From NCBI GenBank assembly GCA_017461985.1, contig JAFTSA010000001.1, positions 301 to 64,300 of the forward strand: a stretch of 64,000 nt of DNA, written 5' to 3'. This document shows, in pieces, positions 1 to 8,100 of this stretch. This stretch comes from Clostridia bacterium. Its GTDB lineage: Bacteria; Bacillota; Clostridia; Christensenellales; CAG-917. How positions within the stretch are numbered: the first letter of the stretch is position 1; every line of letters begins with the position of its first letter. The position numbers and the translations under genes are program-made. Below the pieces are notes generated by a model that worked only from the letters and a program-made list of their open reading frames with translations, was not told the origin of the DNA and did not search any database.

Positions 1-1530
1 GTTTTCAAGGATAACGAAGCGAATTATTATTACGGCGGCGAAAGATTTTGGTCTGATCAGTTAAGCGGCGGTGCTATCGGATGCGACGACGGCTCAAAGC
101 TTACCGTCCGTAATTGCCAAATTATCGGCAACAAGGCAGGGGTTGGCGGAGGTATCGGCGTAAGTATATCAAACGCGGATATCGAGGACTGCTATATAAC
201 CGAAAACAAGGCGATCCCCGAAACCGAGGATAAGCGAAGCGCATTTGGACTTGCAAGCAACCAAGGTCTTGGGGGCGCGATTTATCTCAACGGCGCAACG
301 AGCGTCACGATAGGTAATACCGAAATTCGCCATAATTATGCCGAAAACGCCATGAGCGCGATCTTCACAGACTATAATCCTTCCCTTGATTACAGCACTC
401 GCTCGGTGGATTTATTGTTCTGCACGATAGCGGAAAACACCTGTAAAACGGCAATGTCCGATTGTACCGGCTACGGCGAGGATAAATGGCTATGGTTTTC
501 GTGGTATCCCGACTTCTTTGATATAAGTTATCTCAACTACTACGGAAATTTGGTGGTTGATGAGCTATATGAAACCCACAACCCGAAAAACGAACAACCC
601 ACCGAGGAAAACGGATACAACTTTTTCGGCAGCGCAGCTCCTGCACAGTGGTACAACGAGGAAGGACATCTCGTACACGCCCCTACGGTTTCCACCGATT
701 TCATCAAGGAAAAGCTTGGTGACAGAAACTATTACGGCACGTTTACGGTAGGCGCAAACAACCACGAGGTAACCTTCAGGTTCTTTATGGACGGTGTTTG
801 CAAGGAAACCGTTGTTCTTCCTTCCGGCGTGAATCCTACGAGCCCTGCCTTTGAAAAGGTCGGCTATACGCTCACCGCTTGGACGCTTACCGAGGATTTT
901 GAGTATCAGGTAGACCGTTCCTTCATCGTCGGTAACAAGACGGAAAGCGTGGACTTTCACGCAGTATTCACCCCGAATACGTACACAGTTACCTATCACT
1001 TTGGCGAGGCGACGCAAGAAGTGGAGCAAACGTATGATACCAAACTTGTACCGCCTACACCACAAGAAAGAAGCGGATATAGATTTATCGGTTGGTTTAC
1101 CCAAGAAAATGGAAAGGGGGATAAGCTTGTGGTTGGTAGCAATTACGAGACGGCAAGCGATATTACCTTCTACGCATATTATGAGAAGGAATTTCCCGAA
1201 TTCTATGTTATAATTTCTGTTGTGGGCACTGTGCTTATTATAAGCGTTGCTGTTTTGGCTGGATTTGCGATTTATAGAAGAAAGCATCCGCACATGGTAC
1301 CTGCAACCGACTCTGGAGTACCGCTTCCCGAAGAAAAAGTATTACCTGATACGAGTATGCTTTCGCAACGTGAGAAGGAAGTGTTGGATTTGCTTTTACA
1401 AGGCAAGCAAAGAAATGAAATTGCGACAACCTTGTATATTAGCGAAAACACGGTAAAGAAAAATATTTCGAGCATTTACACGAAGCTTAACGTTTCGTCA
1501 AGGAACGAACTATTTGCTCTTTTCAAGTAA
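1..1530 (+). CDS. Membrane-tethered LuxR/GerE-type regulator with a large extracytoplasmic beta-helix and Flg_new-like repeat region (5-prime end outside window)
   Basis: Frame 1 is open from nt 1 (VFKDNEANYYYGGERFW..LSGGAIGCDDGSKLTVRNCQIIGNKAGVGGGIGV..LGGAIYLNG) into the tracked ORF 352..1530. Repeats GYTLTAWTLTEDF and GYRFIGWFTQENGKG are present. A single hydrophobic span FYVIISVVGTVLIISVAVLAGFAIY is followed by RRKH. The C-terminal HTH is LSQREKEVLDLLLQGKQRNEIATTLYISENTVKKNISSIYTKLNV. Confidence 0.8.
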   Translation, partial: VFKDNEANYYYGGERFWSDQLSGGAIGCDDGSKLTVRNCQIIGNKAGVGGGIGVSISNADIEDCYITENKAIPETEDKRSAFGLASNQGLGGAIYLNGATSVTIGNTEIRHNYAENAMSAIFTDYNPSLDYSTRSVDLLFCTIAENTCKTAMSDCTGYGEDKWLWFSWYPDFFDISYLNYYGNLVVDELYETHNPKNEQPTEENGYNFFGSAAPAQWYNEEGHLVHAPTVSTDFIKEKLGDRNYYGTFTVGANNHEVTFRFFMDGVCKETVVLPSGVNPTSPAFEKVGYTLTAWTLTEDFEYQVDRSFIVGNKTESVDFHAVFTPNTYTVTYHFGEATQEVEQTYDTKLVPPTPQERSGYRFIGWFTQENGKGDKLVVGSNYETASDITFYAYYEKEFPEFYVIISVVGTVLIISVAVLAGFAIYRRKHPHMVPATDSGVPLPEEKVLPDTSMLSQREKEVLDLLLQGKQRNEIATTLYISENTVKKNISSIYTKLNVSSRNELFALFK

Positions 1531-1555
1531 AACTGAATAACTAAAAGCGAGAAAA

Positions 1556-1584
1556 GTCCGATTTTATCAATCGGGCTTTTTTTT
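1556..1584 (+). terminator. Rho-independent terminator after the LuxR-type gene
   Basis: 8-bp stem gtccgatt / aatcgggc with a 5-nt loop, followed by T8. Confidence 0.75.
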
Positions 1585-1614
1585 GCGCGTAAAATTGTTA
1601 AAAAACTGCAGGTA

Positions 1615-1712
1615 TACCCGTTTGGGTAGGGTATTTTGGTCAAAAAGTACCCGTTTTTACCCGAAAAGTACCCGAACGGGTAATATGCTACCCATAGAGT
1701 CTCGAGTATAAT
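1615..1712 (+). promoter_or_regulatory. Array of TACCCG half-sites (two palindromes plus direct copies) ending at a TATAAT -10 box
   Basis: TACCCG at 1615, 1648, 1658 and 1669, and TACCCA at 1689. Inverted GGGTA at 1624 and 1629, and CGGGTA at 1677. Palindromes TACCCGTTTGGGTA (1615-1628) and TACCCGAACGGGTA (1669-1682). TATAAT at 1707-1712 with a poor -35 (tatgct). Confidence 0.6.
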
Positions 1713-1777
1713 TTTTGTAAAATATAGGTGTGCAAAAGAAGAAGACGGCAGGCCTAATCTTGAAAGGAGGGGAAACG

Positions 1778-2101
1778 ATGCTAAAAACAATAACAAAAAA
1801 AATCATAGATAGGTCTACGGATGAGTTTTTCAAATTTGAATTTCATTGCGATAGATGCGGAGCTGGATGGGAGAGTGATACGTATTGTTTCGAGCACGGA
1901 TTTCCCGAAAAGCTTACCGAAGGTGAACAAAGAGCAAAAAATATTATGTGGAAAGTTGAGCACGATGCGGCGTTAGAGCGAGCAAATTTGGAAGCAAGGT
2001 TAAGATTCAATCAATGCAATTCCTGCGGACGAATTATTTGCGACGAATGTTTTGCGATGGATGAAGACGAGGACTTATGTATTGATTGTGCAAAACAATA
2101 A
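1778..2101 (+). CDS. Small cysteine-rich zinc-ribbon-like protein, function unknown
   Basis: ATG at 1778 lies 7 nt after GGAGGGG. CxxC pairs: CDRC, CNSC, CDEC, CIDC. The tracked ORF start at 1730 lacks an RBS. Confidence 0.65.
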   Translation: MLKTITKKIIDRSTDEFFKFEFHCDRCGAGWESDTYCFEHGFPEKLTEGEQRAKNIMWKVEHDAALERANLEARLRFNQCNSCGRIICDECFAMDEDEDLCIDCAKQ

Positions 2102-4146: not shown

Positions 4147-5007
4147 ATGGCGAACAAACTTAGAAATAATTTGACTTATGTGTTTTGTGCAGGATTGGGG
4201 CTTTTGAACTTTATATTTTTGGCGTTTAATTACATAGCGTCGTTTGCGGAATACAGTTATGGAGGATACGGCAATTATTCGCAATCCTACGGCGTGAGCG
4301 GATATAAAGTTATGGATTTGTGGGAACTCAAATTCAGTGGAGTGATGAGTTCTATTATACAGATCTTCATTCTGTTGCTTGGCATTGCTTTGCTTGTTTG
4401 GGGCGTGCTGGGGCTTTTGAAGGCCTTTGGCGTTTTTGAAAAGTTCCCCGATAAGATTGGTAAATTAGAATCGAAGAAACTGGGTGAATTTGGACTTTTC
4501 GGTTTAGCAGGCCTTAACGTATTGCTCCTTATTTTCCTTATTATCTTAACGGCAACCAACACCGAAAAGAGTGAATACGGCTCGGCAGGTATCAAATTTT
4601 CCGCAGGTATCTTCATTGCACTTATCTTTACCGTAGGCTCAGTGGTTGCACTCAAAGTTTTGGGAAAGAAACTTCCTGCAACCGACGAAGGCGGAGAAAC
4701 CGTAACCTACGTTTGCGGAAAATGTGGCAAGAAAGCGAAAGCAAAGGATAAGTTCTGCAACGAATGCGGCGGCGAAATTGAAAAGAAAGTTGTGGTAAAA
4801 GAAGAATACGCTTGTGAAAAGTGTGGCAAAAAAGCGACAGCAAAGGATAAGTTCTGCAACGAATGCGGCGGAGCTGTCGTAGTAAAGAAAGAAGAACCAA
4901 AAGAAGAACCAAAAGAAGAAACGGCAACGATTGAAGACGTTGTTCCACAAGAAGAACCAAAAGAAGAAGAAACTGCAACGATTGAAGACGTTGTTCCACA
5001 AGAATAA
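4147..5007 (+). CDS. Polytopic membrane protein with two tandem C-terminal zinc ribbons and an acidic repeat tail
   Basis: ATG 4147 after AAGGAG. About 4 hydrophobic spans. The module CGKCGKKAKAKDKFCNECGG is duplicated as CEKCGKKATAKDKFCNECGG. The tail repeat is EEPKEE(E)TATIEDVVPQE x2. Confidence 0.7.
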   Translation: MANKLRNNLTYVFCAGLGLLNFIFLAFNYIASFAEYSYGGYGNYSQSYGVSGYKVMDLWELKFSGVMSSIIQIFILLLGIALLVWGVLGLLKAFGVFEKFPDKIGKLESKKLGEFGLFGLAGLNVLLLIFLIILTATNTEKSEYGSAGIKFSAGIFIALIFTVGSVVALKVLGKKLPATDEGGETVTYVCGKCGKKAKAKDKFCNECGGEIEKKVVVKEEYACEKCGKKATAKDKFCNECGGAVVVKKEEPKEEPKEETATIEDVVPQEEPKEEETATIEDVVPQE

Positions 5008-5106
5008 CTTAATCGGGGGGATAGAAAACTTTATCCCCCTAACGTACTGTAAAGCAAAGGATAACCAAAAGATTAAAAAGAAAAATAGAAAATGGAGGTA
5101 AAACCT

Positions 5107-8100
5107 ATGAAGAAGTTTTTCTCAATCATCCTTTTAGTGCTGATGGTGTGTTCGTTCACGTTGACAGCGTGTAATAACACCGATACGCCGCATACCTGTG
5201 AAAGCGTATGTCCCGTTTGTGGAAACTGTATGGACGAAGATTGCACGGATTCGGCTTGTAGCAACAAGTGTCAGGGGCATACTCCTGCACCCGGAACGCA
5301 TACCTGTGAAAGCGTATGTCCTATTTGTGGAAACTGTATGGACGAAACGTGTACAGAAGCCGAATGTGAAGAAAAGTGCGCAGGGCACGAGCAATCGGAA
5401 ATGGCAGCGGCGCAGTTCGTTGCAAACACGGCTAACTATTTGACGGACGCAAACGAAGGTATTTCGGCGGCAGCGGCGGCTCTCGGCGGAAGTATTGAAC
5501 TTTCGTATGAAGAACCTTTCTTCCCGATGGAAATCCCGATGTCGGCAAGTGCGGCCGCCAGTTCAAGCGGTGTAAAATCACTGTCGGCAAGAAAGTATAA
5601 CGTAGGCAATTCCATCGATCTTCTTTCGGACGCGGAGGATGAAAAGGAAGAAGAAATGATGCTGTGCGCAAAATGCGGACAAGTAGAAGTTCCCGTTTCC
5701 CAAAAGTATTGCGACGCTTGCAAAGCAGCAATGGGCGGACAAACTGCTCCTAAGAATTATTCTACGGGAAGTGCTATGGAGCAATACATAATTTTCAACT
5801 CGGTAGCGAGAAAGATTCAACTTATCGTTGGCGCAACCGAGTACTATACGGAATACGATTTCCCGTTCCCGAACGAAAATGAACTTGCTCTTATCGGCAC
5901 GATTAAGTTTGAAGGCGAATTCACCAAACTTCTCAAAGAAATCGAAGATTATGAGTTAAGTGCAGACGGGTTCTACGTTATCGAAGAACCTTACTACCAA
6001 GACGGCACGTTTAATCCAGATACGGGCGAAATTGACAAAGAGTTAGGCGGACAAACGCTTATCTACAAGAAAGTACGTGGGTTTAAGCTTGAGGGCAACA
6101 CGCTCATCACTTCGTCGTATACAATTTCTTATCAATATATGGACAACAACGAAGAATTGATAAGCGAAGAAGTATACGTAGAATATACGATGGACGGCAA
6201 CAACTTCTATTATGAAAAGTACAAAATGGTAGACGGTCAAAAAGTCGTTGTCGATATGTTCGATATCATTAAAGAGGAGCCTGACGAAAATTCAGTGGGC
6301 GACGTGTATTACGTGCAAATGACCCTGAGCCAAGCAGAAATTACGGGCGTTCCCGCCGTGTACTTTGAAGAAGCGATGGATATCGCAGAGCAATGGGACA
6401 AATATGTAAACGAAAAAATGGGCACGGGATACCATGCCGAAGTTCCTACCAAGGTTTACTTAAACGGTAAAATCCACAAGATAGACCGAGACGTAATGTA
6501 CGAAATGTACTACTTCCGCGACTACGACTATGCGGCGGCAGGCTACGAAAGCTCTTGCTACGTTTATCCAATCGAAAATTGGGAAGAATTCTATGGGGAA
6601 TATTTCTATGAATATACGCGTGGAAATTCCGCACCGTTGCCCGAAAGCTGGAAAAACGGCTTCGATACCAACTTGGGCGCAAACCTTGAAGGTATGATTG
6701 AAGATTCGTTGTACGGTAAGTATGCGGAAACTCTTGTGTATAGAGCAAGCGGAAACGTTCAAATGCCAGAGGAAGGGGCAAAATATTATCCGTTCCAACT
6801 TAAAGAATCCAGCGCAACGTTAGATATCAACGATTCTTATGAAATCATTGCAAGTTCTGCGGACGACGCTGTTTGGAGCGTGAGTTCGTCCAATGAAGAA
6901 GTTGCAACCGTGAGCGGTTTAACCGTTCAAGCGGGCAGCATGGAAGGCGAAGCGATTATTACCGTGCAACGTAATAATCTCGTTAGATATTTCTACGTGC
7001 TCGTTCGCAACAGACTCGTGACCGACAATCCCGAAGAAATGACTATCCGTTTAGGAACTACGGGGCACGCATTTTTCAATGCGTATAGCAATCAAAACGA
7101 CGTGATTGTATTCTCGTCCGATAACGAAGAAATCGTTACCATCGACGAAACGGGGTGGATTACCGCGCATAAGGAAGGCGCAACGGCGGTTTGGGCGGCT
7201 ACGCAAGACGGTGAAAGATTTGAAAAGATGTTCGTTCGCGTAGTCGGCAGTGCGGATATCGTATCGTTTTATCAACCGAACGAAGGCAGCGAGGACGTAA
7301 TTTCAACGTTGCACCTTTTGGGACTGGGCAAGATTTCCGTTACTTACGATACGGTTTTGAGCTTGGACACTGAATATTATTTGCTTTTCGAGGGCTTGGA
7401 CGAGGGCGGCTCGTTCTATCAAGACACTCCGATTAACGGGCTTCCGATTTATAATCTCCTCATCAACGGACGGAGTGCGGTGGAGCATCCCGACGTGACG
7501 GTTTCGCGCGTTTACGAGGAGTACCAAAACGATACGGGCGGCACCAATTCGCATTTCCTCAATAATTACCGCAGCGTAACCTTCCATACGGCGGGAACGT
7601 ACAAGTTTGAATTTTGGTATCAACACCAAGGCGGTGAATTTGTCGAAAGAGATACCAATCAATCCTCTTATTCCAATGGCATTCCCATGAAGAACGTCGT
7701 GATTTTGGAAATCAACGTGACGGTTGGCACTCCGTATCCGTACAGATACGACGCGACCACGCACACTTACTACGTTTCCGATTACGCAGGCTTGCTTGCG
7801 TGGTACGAAGCGCAACAGCTTAACAAGAGCACGAATCTCGTGCTTGAAGCGGACATCTATATGCCGACCGTCGCGTCGGAGTTCTTGTTTGACCTTGACG
7901 GGGACGGCGTAAACGAAAGCAACTGGGGGCTTGAAACGGAGCGTTATACGGGTACAATTGACGGCAACGGTAAATATATTCGAGGCTTAACAATGAATAT
8001 CGACGAGAGCGCGAATAACGGTGCGTACGTTGCTTTTGTGTCGCAGATGTTAAGCGGTGGCGTTATAAAGAACATTAATTTTGCGGACGGTCAAATAACA

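Follow-up and report, generated by a model that had tools for sequence, protein, structure and literature searches.

A conserved, helically phased array of TACCCG half-sites as a candidate operator beside a membrane-anchored LuxR-type regulator gene in Clostridia

What does a dense cluster of one short motif do between two genes, which protein would bind it, and would binding turn the neighboring promoter on or off? These questions are raised by an intergenic array of TACCCG half-sites in a Clostridia bacterium, found within a stretch of 64,000 nucleotides (nt) of its genome (GenBank assembly GCA_017461985.1, contig JAFTSA010000001.1, positions 301 to 64,300 of the forward strand), which is referred to here as the window and whose first letter is position 1. 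The array lies between a gene whose product ends in a GerE/LuxR-type helix-turn-helix (HTH) domain and a gene for a Cys-rich protein of 107 amino acids (aa), and the intergenic elements follow one another in the order terminator, array, promoter-like hexamers, Shine-Dalgarno sequence and 107-aa gene. With moderate confidence, we propose that the array is the operator of the promoter of the downstream operon, which encodes the Cys-rich protein, a lipoprotein and a zinc-ribbon membrane protein, and that it is most likely bound by the GerE/LuxR HTH of the upstream membrane protein. The clustering, phasing and conservation of the half-sites, the synteny of the locus and the domain content of its products are direct observations, from which we infer the identity of the binder, the sign of the regulation, the transcription start site and the state in which the regulator works, either tethered to the membrane or released from it.

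Clustering, phasing and conservation of the half-sites

The original prediction, which was made from the sequence of the window, had listed five direct copies of TACCC(G/A), three inverted copies and two palindromes, with spacings close to multiples of a helical turn, and each of these points was recovered. On the + strand, TACCCG starts at 1615, 1648, 1658 and 1669 and TACCCA at 1689, while the inverted copies, read as GGGTA, start at 1624, 1629 and 1678. Together they form two perfect 5-4-5 palindromes of 14 base pairs (bp), TACCCGTTTGGGTA at 1615-1628 and TACCCGAACGGGTA at 1669-1682, both of which fall in the range of about 14-20 bp expected of the dimer-sized dyad in an operator of the LuxR type. 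When read in the same orientation, the half-sites have a longer common form, WWCGGGTA, and a 21-nt imperfect direct repeat is also present in the array region. At a period of 10.5 bp, the five + strand copies show clear phasing (resultant length 0.94; Monte Carlo p ~0.002), which persists when the analysis is restricted to the four conserved copies (p ~0.01).

A genome-wide count of the hexamer had been suggested as a check, and within the window its outcome was divided: TACCCG occurs at background frequency (10 matches versus 12.06 +/- 3.75 expected), but half of these matches are concentrated within 68 nt in the array. For the pentamers TACCC and GGGTA, 8 of the 36 copies in the window lie inside 80 nt (1615-1693), and in 500 shuffles the densest 100-nt cluster usually held 2-3 copies, once 6 and never 8. 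The motif had not been noticed elsewhere in the window, which holds for clusters and for perfect TACCC-N4-GGGTA palindromes, the only two of which are in the array, but not for single copies. A search of the window for a regulon found the remaining TACCCG copies (3073, 3922, 7949, 23898 and 62970) to be isolated and, where checked, in coding sequence, and looser matches to the palindrome, with 2 mismatches, were at background. The clustering and phasing of the half-sites are thus far beyond chance.

The comparison set consisted of 21 genomic loci and several contigs, which were found through the 107-aa protein and are cited by number (L002 and so on) where they have to be told apart. All retrieved loci come from uncultured animal-gut Clostridia, with names including Candidatus Scatosoma and Candidatus Stercoripulliclostridium. 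Conservation in related genomes, which had also been put forward as a check, was found in more than 20 homologous loci, and the gene order of membrane LuxR gene, terminator, array and small gene is kept wherever a locus spans the region. In the window and in each of about 25 loci, this intergenic region is the sole cluster of the motif. Over its 71 nt, the array of the window is 65-86% identical to those of relatives whose coding DNA is 67-78% identical and whose small protein is 65-78% identical. The corresponding values are 45-59% for third codon positions of the adjacent gene and, for the remainder of the leader, 48-62%. As its identity exceeds that of the third codon positions and of the rest of the leader, the array is, to judge from these alignments, under purifying selection.

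Conservation is graded along the array. The proximal palindrome is near-invariant and was found in all loci, at times as the variant CACCCGAA(A/C)GGGTA, and most relatives have GGGTATACCCGTTTGGGTA as their distal cluster; the middle direct copies (1648 and 1658) are degenerate in some groups, and conservation extends to the A- and T-tracts that separate the sites. The distance between the two palindromes is 54 bp in each locus that has both, held at exactly this value by the tract spacer at 1634-1647, and the proximal palindrome lies 107-112 nt from the ATG among the loci. A CtsR-like heptad, GGTCAAA, at 1638-1644 within the spacer was also considered; it occurs a single time and reads GGGCAAA in relatives, and it was treated as chance.

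Inverted copies of one pentamer could also act in RNA, with GGGTA and TACCC forming alternative hairpins that would serve as an attenuator or as a second terminator in read-through transcripts. The region folds at -36.1 kcal/mol (z-score -4.2), two hairpins, 1615-1628 and 1629-1652 with GTTTTT after it, are called terminator-like by a simple scan, and across relatives the T-run and the A-run show a rough correlation in length. However, a good fold is given automatically by inverted repeats, and the whole structure does not rise above shuffles, 47 of 500 of which reach the observed score. Among the relatives, no compensatory pair (0) was found in the palindrome stems, where departures from the consensus break pairs, so that the array shows the selection expected of an operator of the LuxR type without compensatory change of the RNA type. 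The use of one pentamer eight times is unneeded for a stem, and the array stands after a strong terminator and before promoter elements. A permissive Rfam scan of 1400-2300 gave only matches below the gathering score, over the upstream terminator. A structured RNA was accordingly set aside as the main explanation for lack of covariation, despite the good fold, and we regard an RNA-level role as very improbable.

The least probable explanation, to which we give hardly any credence, is a chance or structural repeat, or an element of recombination or replication such as an invertible promoter or iterons. The 21-nt imperfect direct repeat is compatible with it, as is an 11-nt inverted repeat whose arms, at 1517-1527 and 1759-1769, enclose the entire intergenic region. 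Chance is opposed by a level of conservation well above neutral, and inversion by the single orientation of the region in all of more than 20 assemblies and by the absence of the flanking 11-nt repeat from distant groups. The adjacent genes include neither a recombinase nor a replication gene, and the region is on chromosomal contigs of up to 219 kilobases (kb). The single orientation, the unconserved flanking repeats and the gene context together make an invertible promoter or iterons unlikely.

Table 1. Coordinates of the array, the flanking genes and the candidate promoter elements in the window
Feature	Position	Strand	Basis or remark
Candidate regulator gene, 3' part (5' end cut by window edge)	1..1530	+	Pfam GerE 4.4e-16, Flg_new 1.5e-12, Beta_helix 2e-4
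Transmembrane helix FYVIISVVGTVLIISVAVLAGFAIY, then positively charged RRKHPH	1201..1275	+	Hydropathy scan of L002 homologue; translation
GerE/LuxR HTH, recognition helix SENTVKKNISSIY	1357..1515	+	Pfam; closest solved structure GerE 1fse, E 7e-10
Intrinsic-terminator-like hairpin AAAAGTCCGATT / AATCGGGCTTTT with T-run, ending the regulator's transcription unit	1552..1588	+	Inverted repeat; conserved in relatives
Distal site cluster aGGTA-TACCC-GTTT-GGGTA-GGGTA, including palindrome TACCCGTTTGGGTA (1615-1628)	1610..1633	.	Sequence, inverted-repeat scan and relatives, which read GGGTATACCCGTTTGGGTA
T-tract, short GC spacer and A-tract (TTTTGGTCAAAAAG)	1634..1647	.	Alignments: length and composition conserved, sequence drifts
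Two direct half-sites TACCCG (1648, 1658)	1648..1663	+	21 and 11 bp upstream of left arm of proximal palindrome; conserved, partly degenerate, in distant groups
Proximal palindrome TACCCGAACGGGTA	1669..1682	.	Most conserved element of the array; columns (near-)invariant in 15 distinct sequences
TACCCA copy specific to the window	1689..1694	+	Not in nearest relatives; distant groups have GGGTAA here, in opposite orientation
Conserved ATAGA / TAGAGT, -35-like element for P2	1694..1700	+	TAGACA in distant groups
P1 -10 candidate TATAAT	1707..1712	+	-35 poor (3/6 at best); common to the window's group, L011 and L023 (most distant locus)
P2 -10 candidate TAAAAT	1718..1723	+	Aligns with TATAAT, TACAAT or TAAAAT, the only good -10 of other groups
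107-aa Cys-rich protein, first gene after the array, function unassigned	1778..2101	+	AlphaFold predicted local distance difference test score (pLDDT) 85; no significant PDB match
Lipoprotein, 633 aa	2208..4109	+	Downstream operon
Double-zinc-ribbon membrane protein	4147..5007	+	Downstream operon
Big_2 lipoprotein, 1213 aa	5092..8733	.	After the zinc-ribbon gene

The upstream membrane protein as the candidate regulator

The presence of a LuxR-type HTH in the adjacent gene, as originally predicted, is borne out by a strong match to PF00196 (E 4.4e-16, 58.7 bits against a cut-off of 23.5; Pfam residues 453-505). The stop codon of this gene is 85 nt upstream of the array, and a GerE-type HTH gene precedes the array, in the same syntenic position, in each locus covering it. 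A full-length, near-identical homologue is available at L002:1374-3752 (792 aa), in which a signal-peptide-like segment (residues 6-30) is followed by a single further hydrophobic segment (residues 684-708) and then by RRKHPH. The 85 residues after RRKHPH make up the GerE HTH, and this tail holds no cytoplasmic receiver or ligand-binding domain. The ectodomain of about 650 aa combines a right-handed beta-helix, similar to Chlam_PMP, with the Listeria-Bacteroides repeat (Flg_new). Because the positively charged RRKHPH directly follows the transmembrane helix, the positive-inside rule places the C-terminal tail in the cytoplasm, and the protein is predicted to be a type-I single-pass membrane protein. 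One chain thus combines a membrane-spanning segment with a DNA-binding domain that is presumably cytoplasmic, as in transmembrane regulators. The layout of signal peptide, beta-helix ectodomain, one transmembrane helix and C-terminal GerE HTH is somewhat unusual.

A 120-aa remnant of the regulator was seen at L031:545-907, in which a fragment of the beta-helix is joined straight to the HTH tail, without the transmembrane helix. About 400 nt downstream of the remnant, at L031:1300-1335, there is an array-like AAAAAGTACCCGTTTT...AAGTACCCGAA with half-sites 21 bp apart, which ends at the contig edge.

The adjacent LuxR/GerE HTH appears to be the best candidate binder of the array, because the synteny is invariant, the half-site is NarL-like and the mixture of inverted and direct repeats is ComA-like. 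NarL and NarP recognize TACYYMT heptamers (PMC4886647), preferably arranged as inverted 7-2-7 pairs such as TACCCCTAAAGGGGTA (PMC4549865). By comparison, the half-site of the array begins with TACCC, its inverted pairs carry TAC/GTA outermost, and its binder would be a dimer of a GerE/LuxR-type HTH. Extra single or direct heptamers are found at some NarL promoters, as direct copies are found in the array. NarL activates yeaR from a site centred at -43.5 and ogt from two sites, at -44.5 and -77.5 (PMC10853779); similarly, the promoter-proximal site of the array would be centred at about -43.5 over a weak -35, with a second site further upstream on the same face. The base contacts of NarL include Lys188 and Val189 (PMC10853779), and the equivalent positions are invariantly Lys-Lys across the loci, which also share one unchanged half-site. 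Aligned with NarL, the HTH keeps the equivalent of Lys188 and has Lys in place of Val189 and Ser in place of Lys192. Unlike the response regulator NarL, the candidate lacks a receiver domain, and the host is a Gram-positive anaerobe rather than E. coli.

ComA of Bacillus subtilis binds a combination of inverted TTGCGG-4-CCGCAA and direct TTGCGG-5-TTGCGG repeats (PMC4797271). The array likewise uses one hexamer in inverted and direct repeats about 11 bp apart upstream of a promoter, and both systems involve a tetrahelical LuxR-type HTH; in particular, TACCCG-5-TACCCG at 1658-1674 matches the direct-repeat spacing of ComA and runs into the inverted pair at 1669-1682. The two differ in the sequence of the half-site and in the spacer between inverted hexamers (2 nt here, 4 nt for ComA). 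Furthermore, the direct repeats of the array are upstream of the inverted repeat and overlap it, whereas those of ComA are downstream, and the array has a second palindrome cluster 54 bp away. For GerE, which is the closest solved structure, the box RWWTRGGYN2YY has been quoted for Bacillus subtilis (PMC2695774). The recognition helices are similar (TVRNHIS in GerE and TVKKNIS here), and GTTTGGGT at 1620-1627 fits the RWWTRGGY core, but the other half-sites of the array have C in place of the consensus T (WWCGGGTA), and GerE is a small, soluble sporulation protein, so that no equivalence is claimed.

Transmembrane regulators form a broad known class to which the candidate belongs. In Eggerthella lenta, DadR, CadR and HcdR are transmembrane LuxR-type activators of neighboring genes (PMC9734109). 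They share with the candidate the embedding in the membrane, the C-terminal LuxR HTH, the lack of a receiver domain, the position beside their targets and the setting in a gut anaerobe, and they differ from it in having 10-12 N-terminal transmembrane helices and sensing small molecules, where the candidate has a signal peptide, an ectodomain of about 650 aa and one helix. One-component single-pass regulators of the ToxR/CadC type, a widespread class, bind promoter DNA directly (PMC10269533), but with an N-terminal winged-helix DNA-binding domain and a C-terminal periplasmic sensor, an order that is reversed here with a domain of the GerE type. The layout of the candidate therefore differs both from ToxR/CadC and from LuxR types with 12 transmembrane helices. 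By analogy, the array would work like a composite operator of the NarL or ComA type, that is, as an ordinary element served by a somewhat unusual regulator.

A further comparison concerns distant membrane LuxR genes in metagenomes. Two of three such genes carry another recognition helix together with another perfect TAC-N8-GTA palindrome just past the gene, with different inner bases: cCTACCATATTTGGTAGc in L028 (L028:2782-2797, CTACCATATTTGGTAG), 88 nt past the stop codon, and cCTACATATTTATGTAGg in L030 (L030:1108-1125, CCTACATATTTATGTAGG), 177 nt past the stop codon. Attempts to widen the family gave three loci in a metagenome scan with the tail alignment and six matches in a protein search with the tail, and a search with the HTH alignment recovered nothing beyond short solo GerE proteins and ordinary response regulators.

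The array might instead be bound by another protein, namely an XRE-family protein encoded beside the regulator, the Cys-rich product in an autoregulatory role, or an unlinked factor. The XRE gene (HTH_3, Pfam E 7.6e-11) encodes 72 aa, lies just upstream of the regulator gene and overlaps its start in 12 loci, with 81-91% identity, and heads the operon of the regulator in relatives (L002:1172-1390, with its promoter at L002:1100-1171). This neighborhood speaks for the XRE protein, but its own promoter is without a TACCC cluster, and the -10 there is covered by another palindrome, the strongly conserved 7-1-7 element TAATATGACATATTA (L002:1134-1148), which is the likelier XRE operator; moreover, L027 and L023 lack a neighboring XRE gene yet retain both the LuxR gene and the array. 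The Cys-rich protein was found with the array in all loci, yet no DNA-binding family or solved fold was matched by it, and TACCC is a half-site of the LuxR/NarL type. Taken together, another binder seems improbable to us. We would thus assign the array to the LuxR tail and TAATATGACATATTA, which is probably the XRE protein's own operator, to the XRE protein.

The stretch from the XRE -10 to the ATG is nearly invariant and the DNA further upstream varies between loci. The DNA upstream of the cassette differs in L002, L003, L020, L024 and L025, which indicates that the cassette occurs in different contexts. Just upstream of the XRE gene, at L002:828-1019 on the - strand, an open reading frame of 63 aa resembles the C-terminus of an IS3-family transposase (...YYNDYRPHESLKNKTPNQFE...).

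Promoter candidates and the sign of regulation

Two -10 candidates follow the array. The first, P1, agrees with the original prediction of a perfect TATAAT about 13 bp past the array with a poor -35, tatgct: TATAAT at 1707-1712 lies 12 nt after the last array copy, and tatgct is found 17 nt upstream of this hexamer. The second, P2, has TAGAGT 17 nt upstream as its -35, and the -35 elements of both candidates match the consensus at 3 of 6 positions in the window. Assuming a start 7 nt after TATAAT, the centre of the proximal palindrome would be at about -43.5 from P1; from P2 it would be at about -54.5. P1 would thus give a class II-like geometry (-41.5 to -44.5 with a weak -35), and P2 would not. 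Among relatives, the -10 shifts by about 11 bp relative to the palindrome, which is one helical turn; such a shift keeps the helical face and thus fits an activator.

On the reading that we favor, dimers of the regulator would occupy both 14-bp TACCC-N4-GGGTA palindromes, 54 bp apart on the same helical face, and extra subunits on the direct half-sites at 10-11 bp intervals would lead to cooperative multi-subunit occupancy. In the window, the proximal dimer at about -43.5 from TATAAT, over the poor -35, would recruit RNA polymerase and activate transcription, as NarL does at yeaR, with the beta-helix ectodomain as the presumed sensor of the signal. Activation is favored for this window, with the sign of regulation as a candidate assignment.

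The same LuxR protein on the same sites could also act with the opposite sign, blocking a constitutive promoter until a signal relieves the binding, for which the repression of frdA by NarL from a 7-2-7 site near the start site offers a precedent (PMC4549865). Repression would account for the promoters of the L013, L016, L020, L024 and L027 groups, which read TAGAC[AG]-17/18-TA[TCA]AAT with 9-11 of 12 matches and are close to the consensus, and for the GGGTA that abuts the -35. In many loci another GGGTA overlaps the -10, fused to it as GGGTATAAT or GGGTAAAAT (L004, L005, L006, L013-L017 and L019-L021, and not the window). Against repression, both -10 candidates of the window have a poor -35 (3/6), the best-conserved palindrome precedes the core promoter, at about -43.5 or about -54.5, and does not cover it, and the shift of the -10 by one turn keeps the helical face, which is relevant to activators. 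We therefore consider repression unlikely, though of more weight than another binder. The fusion of GGGTA with the -10 depends on a single-base difference among close relatives and could be a repressing half-site or neutral drift.

Several observations weigh against an activator operator bound by the LuxR tail. P2 is more widely conserved than P1, with TAGACA as the -35 of P2 type in other groups (5/6 match), and the near-consensus promoters of several groups, such as TAGACA-18-TATAAT, mean that activator dependence is not general; half-sites that abut the -35 or overlap the -10 in relatives fit repression equally well. The activator-dependent promoter of the original prediction is supported in part, as a conserved, phased cis-element at a promoter with a possible geometry of about -43.5, and is weakened by the alternative -10 and by the near-consensus promoters of relatives. 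Likewise, the predicted five-copy direct array is present in full in the window, but its fifth copy (1689) is not conserved, and the closest relatives read ctcttc (L002) and ctttcg (L003) instead. As to the binder, the array is not a NarL 7-2-7 site, because its palindrome spans 14 bp (6-2-6) versus 16 bp (7-2-7) and because heptamer positions 6 and 7 differ (TACCCGA, TACCCGT and TACCCGT match TACYYMT at 5-6 of 7 positions, and G at position 6 is outside M); one of the three base-contacting residues of NarL, the equivalent of Lys188, is kept in the array regulator. Co-variation of operator and recognition helix, at which the distant membrane LuxR genes hint, is weak and was noticed by eye, and it comes down to two loci, as the searches to widen the family yielded few members; outside arrays, TAC-N8-GTA palindromes number 4 in 220 kb against 3.4 expected by chance. 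Finally, the co-occurrence of the array with the small protein arises by construction, because the loci were retrieved through that protein, which may itself be the binder.

The cassette and its downstream genes

If the operator is confirmed, it would provide a defined site (half-site, 14-bp palindrome, direct-repeat spacing and 54-bp separation) for an uncharacterized membrane-anchored one-component regulator of the LuxR type. The gain would be incremental rather than conceptual, since the cis-element follows rules known from NarL and ComA. In addition, the compact cassette of XRE gene, membrane LuxR gene, array and surface-protein operon could be used to study how factors tethered in the membrane locate their DNA, and possibly as a ligand-responsive switch once the signal of the ectodomain is identified.

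A bolder proposal, which we hold to be possible yet doubtful as a whole, is that the locus forms a self-contained cassette of uncultured gut Clostridia that senses at the surface and switches on its neighbor. The regulator would act while tethered to the membrane, in an orientation opposite to that of ToxR/CadC. As the operator lies about 85-150 nt past the stop codon of the regulator gene, co-translational insertion would hold the target promoter at the membrane, and ligand-driven clustering of ectodomains would translate into cooperative occupancy of the array. The rule would extend to related membrane LuxR genes, with TAC-N8-GTA operators of their own, as in L028 and L030.

The product of the first gene of the downstream operon contains several CxxC pairs, has a long helix at its centre and counts only 27 relatives in a large protein collection. 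Neither this protein nor the lipoprotein matched a family in Pfam or NCBIfam, and a fold search of PDB with the AlphaFold model of the 107-aa protein gave no match below E 0.5. The 107-aa protein could be a partner or a feedback factor of the regulator. Further downstream, the double-zinc-ribbon membrane protein (4147-5007) carries a C-terminal tandem acidic repeat, PKEE...TATIEDVVPQE, twice, and the N-terminus of the 1213-aa lipoprotein (5092-5400) contains a duplicated Cys-rich module, HTCESVCP(V/I)CGNCMDE...C...KC.GH.

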